A stretch of 24,530 nt of DNA from a virus (IMGVR_UViG_3300020045_006068:1-24530), one strand, 5' to 3'; positions 440 through 24,530 are shown, numbered from the stretch's first letter. Translations and numbers: made by a program. Notes: generated by a model not told the origin, from the letters alone.

Positions 440-1012
440 ATGAACAAAAACTACCACGGGCAACACCCGACAAAGACAAACACAAAACTGATTTCCCTTG
501 CTTTTGCATTGGCGTTTCTGTCCTGCCTGCCATCGCACGAGACAAAAGCGGCTACCTTTAATCTGGGCAATTTCCCTGGATCTTCAAGCTTTGGCGATGC
601 GGATGCAAATAGCGCACCGATTCAGGGCTATAACCTACTGCCAAGCAATGGCAACTTTAAAGACGACTGGAATTTTACCGTTAGCCAAAACAACGGCGGC
701 AGCTCAAACGTTGCAATCACCGGAATAGGCCAAGTCAACATTGACAACCTAGCCGCAAGCATAGGCGGGCTGGGCTTTTCCCCGCTGTATAAAGACAGCA
801 CAAATGAGCTGATTGGGCTTAATTTTGGCATACTGCCAGTGGGAAATTACACGCTGACGGTGACAGGATCGCTTAGCGCAAGCAATGCGACGCACAGCTA
901 CAGTGGAAACTTGATAATTGACACTCCCAAGGTTGCGGCTACCCCTTTACCGGCTGCTTTTTGGATGTTTGGGGTTGGTGTTGTTGCACTGACAAGGGCA
1001 TGTAAAAAGTAA
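440..1012 (+). CDS. PEP-CTERM/VPLPA-CTERM-like sorted surface protein (FxDxF-type)
   Basis: N-terminal signal peptide (LISLAFALAFLSCLPSHETKA); FKDDWNF motif; G-N-Y-T-L-T-V-T-G...Y-S-G strands; C-terminal TPLPAAFWMFGVGVVAL hydrophobic segment plus basic tail RACKK. Confidence 0.85.
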   Translation: MNKNYHGQHPTKTNTKLISLAFALAFLSCLPSHETKAATFNLGNFPGSSSFGDADANSAPIQGYNLLPSNGNFKDDWNFTVSQNNGGSSNVAITGIGQVNIDNLAASIGGLGFSPLYKDSTNELIGLNFGILPVGNYTLTVTGSLSASNATHSYSGNLIIDTPKVAATPLPAAFWMFGVGVVALTRACKK

Positions 1013-5194: not shown

Positions 5195-5769
5195 AGATAG
5201 ACCGCAAGCGATTTTTTACCGAATACCGGAATAACTGGGGCGTAATGAGCCAGTCAATGGTTAACGGGCTTGAATCATTGCTGCTCAATATCGAGTCGGA
5301 CGACACGATTAAAGACAAGCGCTGGGCTAGTTATATTCTGGCCACCGTTAAACATGAATGCTCCGACACTTGGCAACCAATCATTGAGCGCGGCGGGCGT
5401 GATTACTTTGACAGGTACGAAAAAGGCACAGTTATCGGTAGGCGGCTGGGAAATACAGAAAAAGGCGATGGGTATAAATACAGGGGGCGCGGCTATTGTC
5501 AAATCACGGGACGGGCAAATTACCACAACATGGCCTTGATACTTGGGATTGACATGATTAACCGCCCAGAAACTGCGCTAGATCCAGACGTTGCCTACAA
5601 AATAATGTCCTACGGAATGCGCAACGGGACATTTACGGGCAAAAAGTTGGGCGACTATATCAACAAAAAGACGTGTGATTATGTTGGGGCCCGTAAAATC
5701 ATCAACGGCACTGACTGTGATCGAAAAATAGCAAATTACGCTGAGCGGTTTGAGGAAATCCTGAAATGA
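5188..5769 (+). CDS. endolysin, glycoside hydrolase family 19
   Basis: YILATVKHE, LGN...GDGYKYRGRGYCQITGRANY and ARKIING motifs. Confidence 0.93.
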   Translation: MLKIDRKRFFTEYRNNWGVMSQSMVNGLESLLLNIESDDTIKDKRWASYILATVKHECSDTWQPIIERGGRDYFDRYEKGTVIGRRLGNTEKGDGYKYRGRGYCQITGRANYHNMALILGIDMINRPETALDPDVAYKIMSYGMRNGTFTGKKLGDYINKKTCDYVGARKIINGTDCDRKIANYAERFEEILK

Positions 5770-6773
5770 AATACGATATTGACGCACTGACAAGAGATGT
5801 TGAAGAAATAACCAAGGCGGTTGAAAAAATGGCGAACTCGGTTGCGGTTGACAAGCTTGGTGATGCAATACAGCGCCTGAAAGCTGTTGTTTTTGGTGGC
5901 GGTGTTGGTGGCGGTGGCAGCGGAGCTGCTGCATTGCCGCAAGCCGTGCGGTCAATATTTAATGTGGACGTGTCGGCATTGCCCGTGCATCCGTATAGCG
6001 CCGGATGGATTGCAAGCATGGGACGAGGCCCACTAAAAGCAGATTTCGGGAGCGGCCTATGGGAAGGCGCGAAGATAGGCATCCCGATAACCAAAGGCAC
6101 ACTGGCGGCGCGCGAAAAGTTTACGTTTAACTATGCGGATGAAAGCGACAACGTGCCTTATCCGGTGGGGGAAATTGAAGGAAACAGCACAGGCACTGGC
6201 GACAGGCACAGCGTCTACTTGGACACGCTCGAAAACAAGCTGTATGAGATGCACAACGTGGACATTGCGACAAAAACAGCCGGAAGCGGTGCGGTTTTTG
6301 ACCTGAACACGCTGGCAATGCGTGCTTGGGGCTGGACGAGCGCCGACGCGGCAGGCTTGCCGATCATGCCGCTATTGGTCACCAAAGAAGAGGTTGACGC
6401 AGGCGAGATAAAGCACCCGATCCGCATAACAGCAAGCAAGATACACGGCTCAATGCTACCCGCTTCGCACATGGTCAAGCCAGAGCTGGGTATGGTTTAC
6501 CCTGACTGGGTGGCGATGGGCGCATGGGCAAGGCTCAAGGCTGATTTTGACATCACGCCTTATCCTTTCGATATTCAGGTTATTTTGAAAGCCATGAAAA
6601 AGCACGGTGTGATTGTGGCGGATGTGGGAAGTGACTGGTATTTTAGCGGCGTGCCAGATGAGTCTTGGGTAAATGACAATCTTGGCTTGCTTAAAAAAGT
6701 GGTTGGGAGTGATTTTGATTTCTTGGACACATCGTCGTTGGGCATGACTTCTAAAAATTATTTGTTGCCTTGA
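5766..6773 (+). CDS. uncharacterised protein: helical leader, Gly linker, 'WTSADAAGLP' domain
   Basis: Motifs YADESD, GDRH, LYE, GSGAVFDL, GWTSADAAGLP, MGxxxRLK, ADxGSDWY; no signal peptide; ATGA-coupled to the endolysin. Confidence 0.8.
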   Translation: MKYDIDALTRDVEEITKAVEKMANSVAVDKLGDAIQRLKAVVFGGGVGGGGSGAAALPQAVRSIFNVDVSALPVHPYSAGWIASMGRGPLKADFGSGLWEGAKIGIPITKGTLAAREKFTFNYADESDNVPYPVGEIEGNSTGTGDRHSVYLDTLENKLYEMHNVDIATKTAGSGAVFDLNTLAMRAWGWTSADAAGLPIMPLLVTKEEVDAGEIKHPIRITASKIHGSMLPASHMVKPELGMVYPDWVAMGAWARLKADFDITPYPFDIQVILKAMKKHGVIVADVGSDWYFSGVPDESWVNDNLGLLKKVVGSDFDFLDTSSLGMTSKNYLLP

Positions 6774-6830: not shown

Positions 6831-7562
6831 TCAGATGAAAAAGCTTAACTGCAAAGGTTGACCCAAGAACGAAGATGCTGCACGAGCCTCAAAGTCTATT
6901 CTTGATTGGCAAGCGCGGGCAAGGCCGGTAACTGCATCTATTTGTTTTGTCAATGCTGCTCTCCCGCCTTCTTGCGTAAACCATTGATGACGCCTTACTT
7001 CATCACCACTTGGAACAAGGTCACGCAATTCTGGCGGCAAAACAATATCGTATACCCATTTTCGGGTTATTTGGCCACAATAGGGCGGCGTGTGGTTGTT
7101 TCCTGTAAAAACTTGGCCATACAACCTCATTATGGCCTGATAAAATTCTGGGGGATAAAGCCGAACCCATTCTGACGGCGCATCAAGCAGCATGAATTTT
7201 TTGTATTCTTCGATGATTTCATAGCGGCTATAAACTTTTTTCAGCTCTTCACGCATCCTAAAAAATTCATCGGTAATGCGGTCTTTGAAATCCATAGTTT
7301 CTTCAGTGTTAGAAACATACTGGATAAGCGTTAAGAATTGCCGCTCATTTAGTAATATGCTTTTTTCTGGTCGCCCACCTTTGCCGCCGTTTTTTAGTTT
7401 AGCGATTTCAAATCGCAAAACCCCATAACGCTCAAATCGGTCTTTACGCTGCTCAATAATGTCTTTTATATTTTTATGAGAAGCGTAACCAAATTGTTTC
7501 CAAACATCTGCCGTTTTTACTACTGGGGCTCCGTCTATCATGGTAACTATAATTTCATTCAT
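6831..7562 (-). CDS. Rha-family N-terminal domain fused to P63C domain (antirepressor-like regulator)
   Basis: N-terminal F...HKNI...I...GGRP...LLNERQF; C-terminal WVRLYPPEFYQAIMRLYG...PPYCGQIT..WVYD...RRHQWFT, as in P63C. Confidence 0.85.
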   Translation of the reverse strand: MNEIIVTMIDGAPVVKTADVWKQFGYASHKNIKDIIEQRKDRFERYGVLRFEIAKLKNGGKGGRPEKSILLNERQFLTLIQYVSNTEETMDFKDRITDEFFRMREELKKVYSRYEIIEEYKKFMLLDAPSEWVRLYPPEFYQAIMRLYGQVFTGNNHTPPYCGQITRKWVYDIVLPPELRDLVPSGDEVRRHQWFTQEGGRAALTKQIDAVTGLARACQSRIDFEARAASSFLGQPLQLSFFI

Positions 7563-8137: not shown

Positions 8138-8224
8138 TTGAAACGAAAAATCGAATGGCCAGAATTCAAGATGCCGCCAATTAATTTATGGTCGATGCCG
8201 AGACTTTACAGGGATTACAGATAA
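8138..8224 (+). CDS. small peptide (28 aa, MKRKIEWPEFKMPPINLWSMPRLYRDYR)
   Basis: TTG after GAGGA; TAATG coupling to the MTase ATG at 8224. Confidence 0.45.
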   Translation: MKRKIEWPEFKMPPINLWSMPRLYRDYR

Positions 8225-9438
8225 TGGAAATTGTATTAAAAAAAACGGATGAGCTTATCCCGTATGCAAATAATCCAAGAAAGAACGATCATGCAGTTGA
8301 TAAGATAGCCGCAGCAATTAGGCAGTTTGGGTTTAAGGTGCCAATTATCGCAAAATCAGATGGGACTGTCGTTGATGGTCATTTGAGATTAAAGGCTGCT
8401 AAAAAACTAAAATTAGAAACTGTGCCAGTATTATTAGCGGATGATTTAACGGATTTGCAAATAAAGGCCTTTAGGCTATCAATAAACAGAATGGCAGAGC
8501 TTGCCGACTGGGACAATGAACTACTTAAAATTGAGATTGATGAGCTTAAGGAGCTGGATTTTGATATTGGGTTGGCTGGGTTTGATGATGAATATATCGG
8601 CCTATTATTTCCAGATCCAGTTATATCCGGACTAACTGACCCTGATGATGTGCCAGATCCCCCTGTTGAGCCAGTTACAAATATGGGTGATGTATGGGTG
8701 ATGGGAAATCATCGGTTAATGTGTGGCGACAGTACAAGCAATGACGACATAGGCAAGTTGATGGGCGGCATAAATGCAGACATGTGGCTCACAGATCCGC
8801 CATACAATGTCGCGTATGAAGGAAAAACCAAGGATGCGCTAAAAATACAAAACGACTCAATGAGCGATGATGCATTTCGTGAATTTTTGCGGGATTGTTA
8901 TGTTGCAGCAGATTCAGTTATGAAGCCGGGAGCTGTGTTTTATATTTGGCACGCTGACTCAGAGGGTTATAATTTTAGAGGGGCGGCTAATGATGCAGGG
9001 TGGAAAGTGAGGCAGTGCCTTATCTGGAAAAAATCCGTTCTCGTTATGGGCAGGCAAGATTATCATTGGAAACACGAGCCGTGCCTTTATGGATGGAAAG
9101 ACGGATCGTCTCATTTGTGGGCATCCGACAGGAAACAAACAACAATTCTTGAGTTTGATAAGCCTGCAAGAAATGGCGAGCATCCAACAATGAAACCAGT
9201 TGAGTTGTTTGAATATCAAATGCTTAACAACACAAAAGGAAAAGACGTTGTGCTTGATAGCTTTGGAGGAAGCGGAACGACTATGATTGCATGCGAAAAA
9301 AATGGCAGGTTTGGACGGCTAATGGAAATTGACCCAAAATATTGTGACGTTATCATAAAAAGATGGCAAAACTTTACAGGTAAAGATGCAATTTTAGACT
9401 CAAATGGAAAGACTTTTGAAGAATTAAGCATTTCTTAA
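8224..9438 (+). CDS. ParB-N-domain DNA N6/N4 methyltransferase (beta class)
   Basis: ParB/Srx motifs PYANNPR, FGFKVP, VVDGHLRL; catalytic TDPPY precedes HPTMKP and DSFGGSGT; ATG 8224 preferred over 8188. Confidence 0.93.
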   Translation: MEIVLKKTDELIPYANNPRKNDHAVDKIAAAIRQFGFKVPIIAKSDGTVVDGHLRLKAAKKLKLETVPVLLADDLTDLQIKAFRLSINRMAELADWDNELLKIEIDELKELDFDIGLAGFDDEYIGLLFPDPVISGLTDPDDVPDPPVEPVTNMGDVWVMGNHRLMCGDSTSNDDIGKLMGGINADMWLTDPPYNVAYEGKTKDALKIQNDSMSDDAFREFLRDCYVAADSVMKPGAVFYIWHADSEGYNFRGAANDAGWKVRQCLIWKKSVLVMGRQDYHWKHEPCLYGWKDGSSHLWASDRKQTTILEFDKPARNGEHPTMKPVELFEYQMLNNTKGKDVVLDSFGGSGTTMIACEKNGRFGRLMEIDPKYCDVIIKRWQNFTGKDAILDSNGKTFEELSIS

Positions 9439-9511
9439 ATATGTAACATAAAACAAAAATAGAAATTAACCACCACAAACGCGCAAAAATCCGCACTAAC
9501 CTAACGATTTT

Positions 9512-9542
9512 AGTTGCAACTCTGATTTATAGAGTTGCAACT
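9512..9542. repeat. 12-bp inverted repeat made of two AGTTGCAACT palindromes (terminator or binding site)
   Basis: AGTTGCAACTCT-gatttat-AGAGTTGCAACT, just past the cassette's last stop codon; no good U-tract. Confidence 0.7.
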
Positions 9543-9545
9543 GAA

Positions 9546-9728
9546 TCATCCCAAATCGCCGATCTGTCTATCCAAAATAGCCAGATTCACAAACTCGCTT
9601 TTGTTCCTAACCCCCTTTAGCTTTTCGTGCGCCTCGGGGGAAATTCTGAAAGATACTGTGATTTTTTTGCCTAGCTCGGAATCAGGCTTTCGGCCTGCTC
9701 CACGTTCGTTGTGGGTTTTTGTTTCCAT
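9546..9728 (-). CDS. small DNA-binding protein, ribbon-helix-helix-like
   Basis: RGAGRKP arm, alternating strand ITVSFRIS, helix PEAHEKL, NKSEFVNLAI; ATG 9728 abuts the upstream stop. Confidence 0.7.
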   Translation of the reverse strand: METKTHNERGAGRKPDSELGKKITVSFRISPEAHEKLKGVRNKSEFVNLAILDRQIGDLG

Positions 9729-9729
9729 A

Positions 9730-10089
9730 TTATTTTTCACCGGCATTTTGTGCATTGACTATTTTGTCTATGTCGTGCTTTGCTGACTCTATCGACAAAA
9801 CCATATCTTTTGTGATGTAGACGGGTAGAAAGGTATTCAGGTCTCCCAGGTTGTTTTTGACTTTATCTGTCCAGGCTATGAATGTCTTACAATACCTTTT
9901 TTTAGTTAACTCCCTTTCTTTTTCATCCCAATCATTTAGGTGCGTTGGCGTTGGCGCTATGCAAAAGTTATATCCTTCGCAATTTTTCCCGCTTATGTCA
10001 CGGTGGTATATCTTCCATCCACGATACTTTTCTATCACAGCGGGGCGCGATGGTCTTGTGTGAATTGCTGGGTCATATATGGTGGTCAT
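9730..10089 (-). CDS. hypothetical protein (119 aa)
   Basis: ATG 10089 preceded by the GAGGATAAAGCC leader repeat. Confidence 0.7.
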   Translation of the reverse strand: MTTIYDPAIHTRPSRPAVIEKYRGWKIYHRDISGKNCEGYNFCIAPTPTHLNDWDEKERELTKKRYCKTFIAWTDKVKNNLGDLNTFLPVYITKDMVLSIESAKHDIDKIVNAQNAGEK

Positions 10090-10146
10090 GGCTTTATCCT
10101 CGGTTAGTTTAAATTTTAGGTTTGTCACCGCGTATGCGGATAGGGG
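10087..10146 (-). repeat. cassette leader repeat, copy 1
   Basis: Aligns with 10705-10761 with few mismatches; contains a CCGC-ATAC-GCGG hairpin and RBS. Confidence 0.85.
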
Positions 10147-10147
10147 T

Positions 10148-10345
10148 TTAAATTCTTTTTACGCTTTCAAGCTTGACCGTTTCAAACTTGCCAATGTTTT
10201 CATCGATTATTTCCTTTGCAACTTCTTTTGCTTCTTTTAGCGATTTGGCTTTAATTACGCAGCTTAATTCGCTTGAACAACGTGTTTCAGTTGCAGAATA
10301 AATGTTTATTTGAAATGCTTTCATTTCCTGATCCTCGATGGTCAC
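10148..10345 (-). CDS. hypothetical protein (65 aa)
   Basis: GTGA coupling to the upstream gene; IKAKSLKEAKEVA motif common in small phage proteins. Confidence 0.65.
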   Translation of the reverse strand: MTIEDQEMKAFQINIYSATETRCSSELSCVIKAKSLKEAKEVAKEIIDENIGKFETVKLESVKRI

Positions 10346-10707
10346 GCTTCCAATCCTGCTTTTTCTTCAATTGCATCAATAACATTGTTAATTTGATTGT
10401 AAAAATCATCCAAATCATTGTATACGCTGGCATCTTCAATTATTTCATTTGCCGCATTGTCACCACTAGCTATTCTAATCTCATAAAGCCGGTTTCCTGC
10501 TTTTTGCGCGGATGTAGTTAATTTTTCCCACCACTCGTAAGTGTATTTATCGCATACGTAGGCATCTAAATCATCATTCCATTCAAATTGCCCGTCGCTT
10601 GTTGCGCCAGTATTGCCAACAAAGTCAGAAATCCAGTCTAAGCCTGTTTTTGGGTCTATGATAGATAGCATTTTGGTTTCGTTTGTTTCTTTGATTATTA
10701 TTTTCAT
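10342..10707 (-). CDS. acidic hypothetical protein (121 aa), anti-defence candidate
   Basis: 25 D/E versus 10 K/R by manual count; strong RBS inside leader repeat copy 2. Confidence 0.75.
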   Translation of the reverse strand: MKIIIKETNETKMLSIIDPKTGLDWISDFVGNTGATSDGQFEWNDDLDAYVCDKYTYEWWEKLTTSAQKAGNRLYEIRIASGDNAANEIIEDASVYNDLDDFYNQINNVIDAIEEKAGLEA

Positions 10708-10761
10708 GGCTTTATCCTCTGTTATTTAATTTTAGGCTTGAAACCGCGTGTGCGGAGGGGG
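10705..10761 (-). repeat. cassette leader repeat, copy 2
   Basis: Near-duplicate of 10087-10146; CCGC-ACAC-GCGG hairpin plus GAGGATAAAGCCATG. Confidence 0.85.
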
Positions 10762-10765
10762 TGTT

Positions 10766-11044
10766 TCAATATCCGCGACACTCGTCATACTCATCTTCAA
10801 TAATTTTTTCTTTGATTGGCTCAATCCTAATGAAATTATCTTTTTCTGACATAGTTAACTTAAATTCTTTTTTGCCACCCTCCAATCTGCTTTCACCCAC
10901 AACCTCAAAGATTTTGCGGGCGGCTTGTCTGGCGGTCACTTTTTTTGATCCAAAAAGTGATTTGTAATTGTACAAAAAACAGCTCATCACTATCGCTCCA
11001 AAAGCGTTTTTTGCGACTATTTGGGTATCTCTTTTTACTTTCAT
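10766..11044 (-). CDS. hypothetical protein (92 aa), first gene of the cassette
   Basis: ATG 11044 after AACCGAGGATAA, a 12-mer shared with leader repeat copy 1. Confidence 0.7.
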   Translation of the reverse strand: MKVKRDTQIVAKNAFGAIVMSCFLYNYKSLFGSKKVTARQAARKIFEVVGESRLEGGKKEFKLTMSEKDNFIRIEPIKEKIIEDEYDECRGY

Positions 11045-11092
11045 TTTCTTATCCTCGGTTGGTTGGTTATGTTTCCTGCTTTGTTGGGATAA

Positions 11093-11120
11093 ATTATACA
11101 CGATTATTTAATTATGTCAA
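11093..11120 (-). promoter_or_regulatory. consensus sigma70 promoter of the inverted cassette
   Basis: TTGACA (11120-11115), 16-bp spacer, TATAAT (11098-11093). Confidence 0.85.
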
Positions 11121-11150
11121 TACGCAATTAATAAAATATTTACACAATTA
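11097..11150. promoter_or_regulatory. operator-like TACRCRATTA box array
   Basis: TACACGATTA 11097, inverted TAATTATGTC 11109, TACGCAATTA 11121, TACACAATTA 11141. Confidence 0.6.
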
Positions 11151-11296
11151 AGCAAAGCAAACATAAACCTTTGTTTTAAGTATAAAATCATTTTAGGCAT
11201 GGCAAAATATCCAAAAATCACCGCAATTACTGCAAAATTCAACCCCAGACACAACAAAACCCCGCATTTATAACGGTTTGGTTGTTTGTTTTTGCT

Positions 11297-11343
11297 TTGT
11301 TTATTATCAAAAACTTATGTACAATTAAACATTGTTTAATTGT
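11297..11343 (+). promoter_or_regulatory. putative terS promoter overlapped by a 23-bp palindrome
   Basis: TTGTTT-N17-TACAAT (11297-11325); ACAATTAAACA-T-TGTTTAATTGT (11321-11343). Confidence 0.5.
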
Positions 11344-11355
11344 CGTAACATAAAA

Positions 11356-11700
11356 ATGAAAAAACAAGGTCGTCCACCGCACAAACCCACCGAAGCCAAC
11401 AAAAAACTGGTGGAGCAACTATCAGGGCGTGGCTTGCCACACAAAATGATTGCAGTGCTAGTGGGGCTATCTGACGACAAGACACTAAGAAATCACTACA
11501 AAGAGCAACTAGAAACAGGAGAGGCCAAGGCATGTGCGCAGGTTGCGGGAAAGCTTTTCGAAAAATGTATGGCAGGCGATACGGCATCTATACTTTTTTG
11601 GCATAAGACGCGGATGGGTTTTAGGGAAAATAGCGAGCAGGTTGTAGACCAGAGCAATCATGAGCATACCCATGTCCACTTCACGCGCTCGAAAGATTGA
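11356..11700 (+). CDS. terS: terminase small subunit
   Basis: GRPPHKPT, HTH-like IAVLVGLSDDKTLRNHY, GDTASILFWHKTRMG; coupled to terL. Confidence 0.8.
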   Translation: MKKQGRPPHKPTEANKKLVEQLSGRGLPHKMIAVLVGLSDDKTLRNHYKEQLETGEAKACAQVAGKLFEKCMAGDTASILFWHKTRMGFRENSEQVVDQSNHEHTHVHFTRSKD

Positions 11701-20258: not shown

Positions 20259-20662
20259 CTGCAGGGGCTTGTGATTTTGCAGGCCACAGGGGCTGGCTAT
20301 CGGCCAGCCCTGACCGTGGCAAGAAGATAGAAAGCCAGACGTATGCAAAGATACACGAGAACAACGAGATAGTGCAGGACATAACCGTTGAAGATGATGC
20401 GGCTATGCTCTTCGGAATCGCAGAAAGTTGCGGACTTTACCAACCGAGCGGCATGGGCATCAACCACACGTCATGGGCAGAAATTAAGGCGTGGCAAGAA
20501 TCAACTGGATATTGTGGGTTATGGCTTTCTGAATCGGTAATGGCAATATCGAAGGCGTTTGTAAGCGCATATAACGAATATAACGACAAGCCGGTTAGTA
20601 TGTCACCGTTAGACCCTCGAACGCTTGACCTTTTAGAAATACAACGGAGCAAAAATGCCTGA
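20243..20662 (+). CDS. tail assembly chaperone -1 frameshift extension (gpGT-like; fusion 19854..20662)
   Basis: The -1 frame is open from the heptamer 20243-20249 (FVGIAAGACDFAGHRGWLS...) through ORF 20372..20662 (SWAEIKAWQESTG). Confidence 0.8.
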   Translation, partial: FFVGIAAGACDFAGHRGWLSASPDRGKKIESQTYAKIHENNEIVQDITVEDDAAMLFGIAESCGLYQPSGMGINHTSWAEIKAWQESTGYCGLWLSESVMAISKAFVSAYNEYNDKPVSMSPLDPRTLDLLEIQRSKNA

Positions 20663-23600
20663 TATTCGCAGCTTAGTGATACGTGCAGATACCCGCGATG
20701 TTGCCAATGCTTCTGTCAATTTGGATCGTTTGGCGCAGTCTACGCGCACCCTGAACACAAGCCTAAACCAGAGCAGGGACGGGCTTGGAAGTTATCAAGC
20801 GGCATTGGCCAGAATATCACAATCAACCACATCCGCCGAAAGGGCTTTAATTAGCGCAAACGGCGCATTTTCATCATACGCAAATTCATTGCGTTCTATT
20901 GTGCCACAAATAAACGCCGTAAACTCAGCAATGGGTACGATTGGCGCAAGCGCAGCGGCAGCAGGGGGACACACATCAACCGCATCTGCCAGAATGGTTG
21001 CAGGCATGACAGGTGCGGCAACGGCAGCACAGAACGCAGCACGGGCAACAGCAGCAGCAACTGGATCAATCAGCGCTGGCATGGCTGGCGCATCAACGGC
21101 CACACAAAACGCAGCAAATACGGCAACGGCAGCACTATCAGGCATGGCCAATAATTCACGCGCCAGCATGGCAGCAATGACCGAGGCAATGGTTGCCAAC
21201 CTTAACCAAATCAATGCGACGCTTTTGCGCATGAGCGCCAACGCCTCAAACACAGGCGGAGGAATTGGAAACCTTGGGGCAGGCGCAGGGCAAGCGGCTG
21301 GAAACGTAGGAAACCTTGGTGGGGCAATCGGTGTAGCCAATAACTTTCTGGCGGCCTTTGGGGTTACGCTAGGCGCTGTTGGATTGGCGCAATTTGCGCG
21401 TGAAATTTTTAACGTAAGCAAGCAGTTTGAAAACATGCAAATCCAGGCGCGCGCGGTATTCGGCACGATGCAAGAGGGAATGCTTGCAATCAAGCTGGCT
21501 CAAAAGCTGGACTTGGCATCGCCTTTCAATCTGCAAGGGATCGAAGCGGCAATGATCAAGCTCAAAACAATGGGGCTTGAGCCAACTGAAAAAGTCATGA
21601 AGTCTTTGCTCGACACGGCGGCATTTATAGGACAAGGTGACGAAGGATTGAGCGGATTTATTTTGCAGCTTGGGCAAGCGTGGGGCAAAGGCAGACTGCA
21701 ATTGGTTGATGCCAAGCTGATGATGGAGCGCGGGATTCCAGTCATCAAAGCATTTACGCAGGTTACCGGATTGCAGGAGGATGCGTTTTATAAAATGTCG
21801 GAAGCCGGAACAATTGGCCGCGACACCATGCTAAAAATGATCGAGGCAATGGGGCAGATTACCGGAGGCAGCGCATGGCTGGCAATGGAAAGCATGGATG
21901 GCAAAATATCAAATTTAAGCAGCGCATGGGGTAAGCTGGCATCCTCTTTCAAAGACACGTCAGCGTGGGCGGCGATGAAGATTGTCATTGAAGATTGGGC
22001 GCTAACGCTTGACGCGGTCAGGGAAAAAATAGAAGGTGTAACAAAAGTATCACCAGTCTCTTCCCTTGATTCTCAAGTGTCTGCGCAATACAGCAAGGTC
22101 ACAGCAATGCAAACGCGCAGCAATCCGTCTAAAGAATGGCTGTCACAACTGACCGAAGAATCTGCCAAGCTTGCCGGGCTTATTGAAACCAGAAAAATTG
22201 CGCTAGGCTTGGCAAAAGATGAAGATAAAGCAGAGCAAGGACTAAAAGACGCGCAACAAAAACGGCTTGATGAGTCAGTATTAAAGCAAACCGAGATAAA
22301 CGGCATCACTGAAGATGCCATAAACCTGCGCAAAGACGGCATGACCAGAGAAATTGCAATGGTGACACAGGCATCCAGCCAAGAAGTTGCAATAATCAAA
22401 AACAAGGTTGCCGAAATCGAGTTGCTTTATACATCCGGCGCCGTGTCAATGTCGGATTACTTTGCGCAAAAAGCAGGCCTGATTAATCAACAGTTTGACG
22501 CACAGGCGCAGGGCATCAAAGATCAGCTTGGAATTGTAAACAATGCAATGGCTGAATTGCCTTCAAGCGCCACCACAATCAAATTTAAGCTTGACACAAA
22601 AAACCTTGATGGCCAGATGGCGGGATTTGTTGATAAGTTTGGTGCGCAAATATCAAAAATATCCGGACAGCTTAAGATACCTTTCGAGCTTATTGCCTCA
22701 CAATTGGCGCTTGAAACGGGCTATGGAAGATCAATCATAAAAAATGCCGATGGCTCAAGCACTAACAACCTTGGAAACATAAAAGATTTTAGCGGGAATG
22801 GCGTTCGGGCGTACGACAAGATAGAAAAAAGCAATGACGGCTACAAGGCATACGCATCAGCAGATGATTTTGTGGCTGATTATGTCGCAAAAATAAAGCG
22901 CCAGTGGAGCGGCGCAATGGGCGCTAAAACCGCACAAGAGCTTGCGGCTGGCTTAAAGACCGGAAAACAAGGCGGCTATGCAACAGACCAGAATTATGCT
23001 CAAAAAATTGAATCGATATCATCCAAATTCAAGGGCGTTACGACCACTGCAGATGAGGCTGGCAGCGTACAGCTAAACAAGCAGCGCACCGAGCTTATGC
23101 TACAGCAATCAAAGCTTAGTGGTGATATTTCGGAAAATGAGCGCGCGCGCGGCTTGGCATTAAAAGGCAATGTTGCAGACCAGCTTAAAATCGTAGACGC
23201 TTACATGCAGCAGGGCGAAACGGCGGCGGAAACTTATAACCGTGAAGTGGCATTATTGCAACAAAAAAAGGAATTTGCGCTAAACTCACCAGGCGCAGAC
23301 GTTGGCGCAGTTAACAATGCTTACTTGCAGCAGCTTGACAAGCTTGGCGAAACGCTTTTAAAAAATACGCCGCTGGTGCAAGAATTTGACAGTGCCCAAA
23401 AAGCATATAAAGGCACTGTTGGGAATCTTGAGGAAAGCATTGCTAAACTTAACAAAGCATTTGATATTGGCGCAATCAGCCTGCCTGAATATTATAATCA
23501 GCTTGACAGGCTGTTTGAGTCATTCAACAAAAATGACAAGGGAGCTGAGCAATTCAAGTCAGTTATGGAGGCGCTGGATAAGGAGATTTTGACGGCATCC

Positions 23601-24530
23601 GGCAACATTTATGCAATATTCAACGAGCAAATCAAAGAAGTAACCGACCCGTTAAAGCGTGAACAATTACAAGTGAAATTCCAGCTAAAAATTGACGCGC
23701 AGGCATTTAAGGCGCAGATGGATTCTTTAAAAAGCGGGCTGGAATCTGCATTAGGCTCAATGTTGGACGGCACAAAATCATTTGGCGAGGCGTTTAAAGG
23801 CCTGTTTGATTCGATGGTTAAGCAAATACTTAACACATCAATTAAAAACTTGGTGGACGGGCTTCAAAATGCCCTGAATGGTGGGAGTTGGTCACAGTTT
23901 TTCAGTGGCGTTGTAGGGGTTGCGGCCAGTGCCTTGACCAGCTGGCTATCAGACAGCGGCAAGGCCGATGCGCCCAGCCTAGCCCAAACCAGCACCAATA
24001 AAAACATTTTAGGCCTCGACAGCATGGCCATCGCTGACAAAGGTGGCCGCGCCACTTTTGAAGCGTCGATGGTGCCGACGATCCAGAATTACAATAACTC
24101 GCTTAACTTGGCATCAACGCTAATTCGCCAAAACGCCGACACGATTGTCAATTTCGGCGCAAAACTGTTGGGCAGCTTGTCGCAATCGGTGCTGGGCGGT
24201 GCGGTCACGGGCGCTATTTCTAAATTTGTGGACGGCCTCAAAAGTGCCTATTCTTCTGTCACCTCGTTTGGCAGCGAATTGGTGGGTGGCGTTGGCAAGA
24301 TTATCGGCGCGGCCACTGATGCGTTGGGCATCACCAGCGCGGCAGCAACCAATGGGATTTCAAATGTCGGCACGGGCGCTGGCGCAAATGTCGGCGAAGC
24401 GGCAGGATCAGGATCAAGCGCAGCCGGTGCGGCAGGCACGGTGATTGCGTTGGTGGGCTTGGCTTATAACTTGTTTAGCATTGCAGGCCAAAAGTTTACA
24501 TCAACGTTAAACAAAGTGTCACAAGGCTTT
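20655..24530 (+). CDS. tape measure protein (partial, >1290 aa) with internal GH73/FlgJ-like peptidoglycan hydrolase domain
   Basis: ATG 20655 (ATGCCTGA overlap); absent from the ORF track, consistent with no stop before the window end; SPF...QLGQAWGKGRLQ...ERGIPV tape-measure motif; QLALETGYG...NNLGNIK...GYATDQNY at about 22626-23010. Confidence 0.93.
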   Translation, partial: MPDIRSLVIRADTRDVANASVNLDRLAQSTRTLNTSLNQSRDGLGSYQAALARISQSTTSAERALISANGAFSSYANSLRSIVPQINAVNSAMGTIGASAAAAGGHTSTASARMVAGMTGAATAAQNAARATAAATGSISAGMAGASTATQNAANTATAALSGMANNSRASMAAMTEAMVANLNQINATLLRMSANASNTGGGIGNLGAGAGQAAGNVGNLGGAIGVANNFLAAFGVTLGAVGLAQFAREIFNVSKQFENMQIQARAVFGTMQEGMLAIKLAQKLDLASPFNLQGIEAAMIKLKTMGLEPTEKVMKSLLDTAAFIGQGDEGLSGFILQLGQAWGKGRLQLVDAKLMMERGIPVIKAFTQVTGLQEDAFYKMSEAGTIGRDTMLKMIEAMGQITGGSAWLAMESMDGKISNLSSAWGKLASSFKDTSAWAAMKIVIEDWALTLDAVREKIEGVTKVSPVSSLDSQVSAQYSKVTAMQTRSNPSKEWLSQLTEESAKLAGLIETRKIALGLAKDEDKAEQGLKDAQQKRLDESVLKQTEINGITEDAINLRKDGMTREIAMVTQASSQEVAIIKNKVAEIELLYTSGAVSMSDYFAQKAGLINQQFDAQAQGIKDQLGIVNNAMAELPSSATTIKFKLDTKNLDGQMAGFVDKFGAQISKISGQLKIPFELIASQLALETGYGRSIIKNADGSSTNNLGNIKDFSGNGVRAYDKIEKSNDGYKAYASADDFVADYVAKIKRQWSGAMGAKTAQELAAGLKTGKQGGYATDQNYAQKIESISSKFKGVTTTADEAGSVQLNKQRTELMLQQSKLSGDISENERARGLALKGNVADQLKIVDAYMQQGETAAETYNREVALLQQKKEFALNSPGADVGAVNNAYLQQLDKLGETLLKNTPLVQEFDSAQKAYKGTVGNLEESIAKLNKAFDIGAISLPEYYNQLDRLFESFNKNDKGAEQFKSVMEALDKEILTASGNIYAIFNEQIKEVTDPLKREQLQVKFQLKIDAQAFKAQMDSLKSGLESALGSMLDGTKSFGEAFKGLFDSMVKQILNTSIKNLVDGLQNALNGGSWSQFFSGVVGVAASALTSWLSDSGKADAPSLAQTSTNKNILGLDSMAIADKGGRATFEASMVPTIQNYNNSLNLASTLIRQNADTIVNFGAKLLGSLSQSVLGGAVTGAISKFVDGLKSAYSSVTSFGSELVGGVGKIIGAATDALGITSAAATNGISNVGTGAGANVGEAAGSGSSAAGAAGTVIALVGLAYNLFSIAGQKFTSTLNKVSQGF

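Follow-up and report, generated by a model that had tools for sequence, protein, structure and literature searches.

Introduction

Aca1 to Aca12 are listed as HTH proteins in the available text of a recent study (Feussner et al. 2026, PMC13551039), in which Aca14 is described as a ribbon-helix-helix (RHH) protein that represses anti-defence operons via a repeat in their promoter. RHH-regulated anti-defence operons of the Aca14 type have thereby already been published, and since the architecture of the cassette described here is of this published kind and not new, its value lies in its new parts. In addition, the leading regions of plasmids are, according to the available part of another report (10.1101/2023.02.15.528439), enriched in anti-defence genes.

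The present work concerns five small, inverted genes in the window, i.e., the whole stretch of 24,530 nt that was analysed. The comparative data presented make it probable that this cassette is an early anti-defence operon of the acr-aca kind that is repressed by its own RHH protein. An anti-defence role is considered likely because in other mobile elements relatives of one of its genes, ORF B, adjoin anti-CRISPR genes that are already known.

Results

Gene content and setting of the cassette

The window is a single tailed-phage contig, in which a plus-strand lysis and packaging region hosts five minus-strand ORFs (A to E); the ORF calls bear out an earlier note on this DNA that had described five small minus-strand ORFs within a plus-strand region. 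The gene order is lysis genes, Rha-like regulator, nuclease, ParB-methylase, terS, terL, portal, capsid, and tape measure, the portal and capsid labels being drawn partly from position in this order. The capsid protein has its nearest match in an Acinetobacter phage (74%), followed by other proteobacterial phages, and the host is probably a proteobacterium. The cassette and its flanks comprise the following features.

8188..9438, plus strand: left flank, ParB-like N-terminus fused to an N6/N4 DNA methylase
9481..9550, minus strand: long hairpin from two AGTTGCAACT palindromes (9512, 9533), then a weak terminator-like hairpin; probable 3' boundary
9546..9728, minus strand: ORF E, 60 aa, RGAGRKP basic arm and predicted ribbon-helix-helix, candidate autorepressor
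9730..10089, minus strand: ORF D, 119 aa, orphan
10087..10150, minus strand: leader repeat copy 2, ahead of ORF D
10148..10324, minus strand: ORF C, 58 aa, without detected homologue
10342..10707, minus strand: ORF B, 121 aa, acidic (pI 4.1), candidate anti-defence protein
10705..10768, minus strand: leader repeat copy 1, ahead of ORF B, with a small hairpin, an A-rich stretch, and a GAGGA ribosome-binding site
10766..11044, minus strand: ORF A, 92 aa, basic (pI 9.3), orphan
11093..11120, minus strand: sigma70-type promoter, perfect TTGACA (11120), 16-nt spacing, TATAAT (11093)
11108..11151, minus strand: inverted repeat enclosing the -35, 15-bp arms with 2 mismatches and a 14-nt spacer; candidate operator
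11321..11343, no strand assigned: perfect 11-bp inverted repeat just 5' of terS; candidate second operator
11353..11700, plus strand: right flank, terminase small subunit (terS; phrog_309, E=2.8e-11), with an upstream TTG at 11332 also open

ORF E starts 1 base past the stop codon of ORF D, and an alternative start at 9755 is also open and would yield a protein of 69 aa. The GC content is approximately 0.39 in the cassette versus approximately 0.50 in the head and tail genes, and that of the adjoining methylase region is likewise low.

Several other genes of the window were recorded in passing. A phage-borne PEP-CTERM-type protein (440-1012, plus strand) matches the FxDxF family just below the cut-off (E=1.2e-11); such proteins are normally bacterial and surface-sorted, and the copy in the window may point to the host group. 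A 335-aa gene (5766-6773, plus strand) directly 3' of the GH19-like endolysin has no Pfam or NCBIfam match, and a second, lone minus-strand gene (6831-7562; Rha/Bro-N and P63C) lies in low-GC DNA that separates the lysis region from the nuclease. The tape measure protein (20655-24530, plus strand) contains an internal FlgJ-like peptidoglycan hydrolase domain.

Promoter, leaders, and repeats

The perfect TTGACA and TATAAT hexamers reported previously were recovered and constitute the sole 12/12 match to the promoter consensus in the window, where 0.04 would be expected by a rough composition estimate. As in acr-aca operons, the operon is headed by a strong promoter of the host-polymerase type, and an inverted repeat, here with imperfect 15-bp arms around the -35, overlaps that promoter. 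The motif AAT(T/C)G(T/C)GTA, which was picked after the fact, occurs three times around the promoter (11149, 11129, and 11105) and in 2 further copies elsewhere in the window.

The arm length of the pre-terS repeat (11 bp) was matched in 3 of 300 shuffles, and the repeat has a TTAATTG core in common with the promoter repeats. Four of the seven TTAATTG heptamers in the window, including both pre-terS arms, fall within a 250-nt intergenic stretch. This clustering favours the explanation that ORF E mainly times packaging, by binding the pre-terS and promoter repeats and coupling cassette shut-off to terS/terL control, as do the interruption of a methylase-terS run that is continuous in relatives and the control of neighbouring operons by Aca14 (available text of PMC13551039). 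The intergenic stretch is AT-rich, however, and the promoter calls include no plus-strand consensus match ahead of terS, and timing as the main role of ORF E is considered very improbable; it can go together with the preferred reading of an autorepressed anti-defence operon.

GAGGA leaders precede four genes, A to D (11056, 10719, 10336, and 10101), instead of the three counted earlier, and ORF E has none. A leader of approximately 64 nt is duplicated ahead of ORFs B and D, with 55 of 66 aligned columns identical and the small hairpin conserved between the two copies. The earlier note does not mention this duplicated leader, either of the two inverted repeats, or the hairpin 3' of ORF E. The leader pattern gave 0 exact matches among viral contigs; an RNA-based anti-CRISPR was dropped as an identity for these leader repeats, as no Rfam match came near threshold.

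The hairpin 3' of ORF E has a folding energy of -27.7 kcal/mol (z = -3.2; 1 of 200 shuffles), and since it carries no U-tract, it is regarded as a putative terminator only. Its AGTTGCAACT palindromes, 21 nt apart (9512-9542), are the sole copies in the window; the pair was found in no other fetched locus and could be a protein-binding site instead of a terminator.

Insertion in a recurring slot

Nine related loci contain terL together with a methylase homologue of full length. The methylase-to-terL gap measures 336-545 nt and holds terS alone in 7 of these nine, versus 2265 nt here; the remaining 2 comprise a locus with an additional plus-strand gene and a locus lying on the opposite strand. 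As only terS separates the methylase and terL in those 7 loci, the five-gene cassette is, judged by gene order, an insertion between the methylase and terminase genes.

A terL scan, in which 80 of 143 related loci were kept, revealed similar operons in the same slot. At least 2.5 kb of upstream sequence was present in 49 loci (26 lineages at 85% clustering). Of these, 5 loci, or 3 lineages (L032; L082, L084, and L087; L092), carry inverted operons of small genes that close with a GRK/GRP plus RHH-like gene and precede either terS or the ParB-methylase-terS block. Pfam RHH_1 scored above the cut-off for L087 alone and weakly for L082 and L084, while L032 and L092 were assigned by eye. L082, L084, and L087 have a near-identical promoter region, a similar RHH gene, and differing cargo, and the L082 cassette also carries repeated leaders. 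An inverted cassette with repeated leaders in L066 has no RHH gene within range, and in L075 and L076 the RHH gene stands first. None of the same-slot cargo in the related terL loci was homologous to ORFs A to D, no named Acr family was found in the scanned cargo of relatives with PHROGs and Pfam, and a blastn search with the cassette DNA gave nothing among phages. Separately, the swapped small cargo before the packaging block within one phage lineage (L082:4449-5431, L084:1164-2292, and L087:2504-3406, minus strand) represents a set of unannotated anti-defence candidates.

ORF E, the candidate regulator

The last gene had previously been described as encoding a 60-aa RGAGRKP plus RHH-like protein. 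The arm is present in this basic protein (pI 9.6), whereas the RHH call stays below the curated cut-off (Pfam RHH_7, E=0.035), as does that of its homologue P0072 (RHH_7, E=1.7e-4). A full HMMER scan, from which one 1638-aa match was dropped, yielded seven homologues of 57-64 aa that share with ORF E the basic arm, an alternating hydrophobic stretch, and two helices. Alignment of the ORF E profile with the RHH_1 protein of L087 covered 49 columns at a probability of 35%. Structure prediction gave a single-sequence model with a pTM of 0.30 and no informative fold match, and a homodimer score of 0.41 (mark 0.42). ORF E found nothing in the word-indexed search or among plasmids, and two weak Vibrio phage matches were rejected as not cassette-terminal.

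Membership of known Aca families was evaluated on homology and operator sequence. ORF E had no HTH match in Pfam and a probability of 0.04% against an Aca3 homologue; with no HTH domain detected, it was rejected as an HTH-type Aca (Aca1-Aca12). Against the Aca14-like protein of L017, which served as a proxy while the published Aca14 was compared by eye, hhalign returned a probability of 1% over 16 columns. The Aca14 repeat was not found at up to 3 mismatches in the cassette promoter, a 3-mismatch match occurring inside ORF B alone, and this proxy homology and operator search ruled out ORF E as an Aca14 family member.

A scan for RGAGRKP-type arms identified 33 viral loci, mostly of low-GC phages, in which the arm-motif genes are solitary, head a divergent unit, or lie among replication genes. 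In 0 of these 33 loci does the gene close a small-gene cassette, and the arm motif therefore does not by itself mark an Aca.

The coupling of ORFs D and E would also be expected of a toxin-antitoxin pair, toxin first and RHH antitoxin second, that stabilises the cassette, and homologues of ORF E have faint BrnA, HicB, and MobC scores (E 0.06-0.23). Against this, ORF D matches no toxin family in the profile, PDB, and PADLOC searches, and the gene preceding the terminal RHH gene varies freely in relatives, which leaves this explanation an extremely small probability.

Cargo ORFs A, C, and D

Profile searches of ORFs A to D in Pfam, PHROGs, and NCBIfam gave no match to a named Acr, in agreement with the earlier note, which had recognised none among the cargo; these libraries are incomplete, as Pfam and NCBIfam also missed an AcrVA3-like neighbour of ORF B. 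No match to solved structures (PDB sequences) was obtained for B, C, and D, and PADLOC defence models matched none of the five ORFs. Neither the Atlas nor phage tblastn provided homologues of ORF A, for which one viral-scan match of 28 residues was rejected as no ORF exists there. For ORF C none was found by phage tblastn or in PDB, and for ORF D homologue searches including PDB gave nothing usable. By eye, ORF C looked like AcrIF9 and some neighbours like AcrIE7, but PDB searches did not support these likenesses. Because no homologues of A, C, and D were detected, the anti-defence case is carried by ORF B.

ORF B and its relatives

ORF B has 25 homologues at 35-55% identity, and the 10 clusters looked up are all annotated merely as hypothetical. 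Loci were collected from viral (15), genome (8, of which one was spurious and dropped), metagenome (30), plasmid (2 of 5 records), and phage (1) sources. The whole ORF is present in 54 of 55 loci, representing 31 lineages at 75%, and the median pI of the family is 4.05. It is an undescribed family, spread over phages, inoviruses, and plasmids. A literature search found no paper on five of its accessions, and motifs of ORF B had no match in the searched supplement files of PMC12248084, PMC13551039, PMC7391736, and PMC7648647, in which wrapped lines may hide motifs.

Named Acr or Aca homologues occupy the same operon as the B homologue in 5 of the 31 lineages. In Neisseria-type phages it lies two genes upstream of Aca3 (E=5.9e-15 to PDB 9vt3), and in L116 it directly follows a part that resembles the N-terminus of AcrVA4 (E=4.5e-6) and is fused to an HTH. 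In Moraxella (L025) it lies two genes before an AcrVA3 homologue, identified by eye against a table in the accessible portion of PMC7391736, and in Neisseria shayeganii it immediately precedes a gene with weak similarity to AcrIIC5 (E=0.0094). In an Aggregatibacter plasmid and an inovirus (L017 and L018) the B homologue is the first gene, approximately 90 nt downstream of an Aca14-type repeat with 2 mismatches, for which a match also arose in 13 and 11 of 200 shuffles; the operon ends in an RHH gene that resembles Aca14 by eye, and L018 also has an AcrVA3-like gene, 38% identical to that of L025. The earlier note would have given up its anti-defence reading if homologues never lay near anti-defence genes, and these five lineages leave the reading standing on that point. 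Across unrelated hosts, the ORF B family keeps company with two Aca families and with Acrs that act on type II-C and V-A systems, a breadth of neighbours and hosts that would fit a broad or non-CRISPR target. A specific role as an anti-CRISPR is a serious possibility that is held with some doubt.

The fused gene of L116 (222-842), an AcrVA4 N-terminal-like region joined to an Aca3-like HTH, is by itself a possible self-regulating Acr-Aca fusion. Related unannotated proteins of 87-88 aa (E=1e-5) stand beside B homologues in Moraxella and Neisseria-type loci (L025:2816-3079 and L122:2421-2687), and DUF3560 and Phage_Gp111 genes are recurrent in B operons (L014:5746-6552; L016:4403-4900; L114:1931-2332). 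In L015 a B homologue shares its operon with a gene of 103 aa and with an RHH-like gene (1953-2183), to which L006 has a related gene, and at the head of the operon a perfect 18-bp inverted repeat is centred on the -35 (1130-1170). The RHH-like gene is a candidate for another RHH Aca family, and by analogy the repeat fits the operator reading proposed for the cassette repeats.

On the tree of the B family (29 lineages plus the window, with L004 and L117 left out), which is weakly supported, the five lineages with Acr or Aca neighbours are scattered. The five neighbour proteins had 0 matches in 113 other phage loci (865 kb), a control that is partly circular because the queries were chosen from B loci. 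A promoter matching at least 11 of 12 consensus positions lies within 200 nt of the start in 7 of 23 loci for B homologues versus 7 of 212 for control ORFs (Fisher p=7e-5, with loci counted before de-duplication). Small HTH or RHH neighbours were not enriched near B (7 of 31 lineages versus 4 of 22 random phage anchors, p=0.75), and the generic argument from such neighbours was abandoned upon this control. The closest relatives of ORF B (46-50% identity; L110, L111, L005, L002, and L020) have an unnamed HTH gene at most.

These controls bear on the explanation that the cassette is an autoregulated early moron operon, with cargo for host takeover or metabolic tuning instead of anti-defence, and that B and Acr genes keep company through shared early-expression slots. 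It would account for the 26 of 31 lineages in which no named Acr or Aca neighbour was found, many of them on short contigs, for the unenriched HTH and RHH neighbours, for the orphan status of A, C, and D, and for the absence of named Acr families from the same-slot cargo. It accords less well with the five scattered lineages that share operons with named Acr or Aca homologues, and with the Aggregatibacter conjugative plasmid, where the B homologue is located just beyond the relaxase genes, possibly in the leading region, such regions being rich in anti-defence genes according to the source text available. A moron operon of this type is therefore considered unlikely.

Morons typically show a constitutive-type promoter, opposite orientation, and their own 3' hairpin. 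The cassette resembles them in all three, and several B homologues adjoin integrases, as would suit a lysogen-expressed cassette for phage exclusion or competition that acts from a prophage against other phages. Such a role is improbable, given that no PADLOC match was obtained for any of the five ORFs, that the named neighbours of B are anti-defence and not defence genes, and that the 24.5-kb contig has no demonstrated temperate lifestyle.

The predicted model of ORF B (pLDDT 73) had no Foldseek match in PDB or BFVD, the best VIA Z of 5.6 being confined to the helical part, and one unnamed cluster in the Atlas matched at TM 0.67. These results do not establish a new fold.

Discussion

The earlier note had proposed an anti-defence module. 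That proposal is strengthened by the insertion, the repeats overlapping the promoter, and the Acr and Aca neighbours of B, and weakened by the lack of any named Acr, of detected homologues of A, C, and D, and by the occurrence of the arm motif in 33 non-cassette loci. The regulatory logic proposed here for an RHH-autorepressed anti-defence operon follows the Aca model as described in the available text of PMC13551039. Upon DNA entry the cassette would be transcribed by host sigma70 RNA polymerase in an early burst, and the cargo of ORFs A to D would blunt host defences, with ORF B as the best candidate and a CRISPR-Cas system as its most likely target. ORF E, made last and having no strong ribosome-binding site of its own, would build up with a delay, dimerise as a ribbon-helix-helix protein, bind the -35 repeats, and shut the promoter. 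This shut-off would limit head-on transcription into the lysis, methylase, and packaging genes, and the repeated leaders likely permit swap or duplication of cargo genes.

With its 31 lineages, ORF B appears from sequence comparison to be a concrete candidate anti-defence family, and a new bait for finding anti-defence genes is suggested by inverted pre-terS operons that close with a GRK/GRP-RHH gene and carry cargo nearly all of which lacks annotation. A far-reaching version of the proposal combines three parts: that ORF B founds a cross-phylum anti-CRISPR or anti-defence family without a recognised fold (tailed phages, inoviruses, and plasmids of Pseudomonadota, Bacillota, and Desulfobacterota), that ORF E is the founding member of a second family of RHH Acas, with a GRKP arm and apart from Aca14, and that the inverted slot next to terS is a cassette array driven by leader repeats, with an E protein that additionally sets the timing of the packaging genes. 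Taken as a whole, this combination is speculative and rather doubtful.

Comparison with known systems

Because the cassette contains no named Acr and ORF E groups with neither Aca14 nor the HTH-type Acas, it is not classed as an acr-aca or Aca14 operon. Phage morons and plasmid leading-region anti-defence islands, as far as the source texts available describe the latter, are likewise self-contained units of lower GC content with their own promoter and 3' hairpin, missing from most relatives; unlike them, the cassette has five genes, a putative dedicated terminal regulator, and repeated gene leaders. With the acr-aca1 to aca12 operons, e.g., the Neisseria aca3 loci, it shares a strong promoter, small orphan genes, a gene for a small, in the cassette putatively DNA-binding, protein in last position, a site among lysis and packaging genes, and B homologues, which there lie two genes upstream of Aca3; it differs in that its candidate regulator is RHH-like and not HTH, in its inversion, and in its repeated leaders.

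The Aca14 operons, in the published description as available, differ from the cassette in having their repeat over the -10, whereas the cassette repeat encloses the -35, and in a long helix where the basic GRKP arm of ORF E is predicted to be coil; moreover, ORF E has no detectable relation to the Aca14-like protein of L017, the cassette promoter has no Aca14 repeat, and the cassette has no named Acr. They agree with it in a small RHH gene, in the cassette a predicted one, among small genes, an inverted repeat over the promoter, and a second repeat near a neighbouring operon, and B homologues head operons with an Aca14-type repeat in L017 and L018. By analogy, the cassette may work like an acr-aca operon, with the RHH-regulated Aca14 operons as its nearest counterpart.
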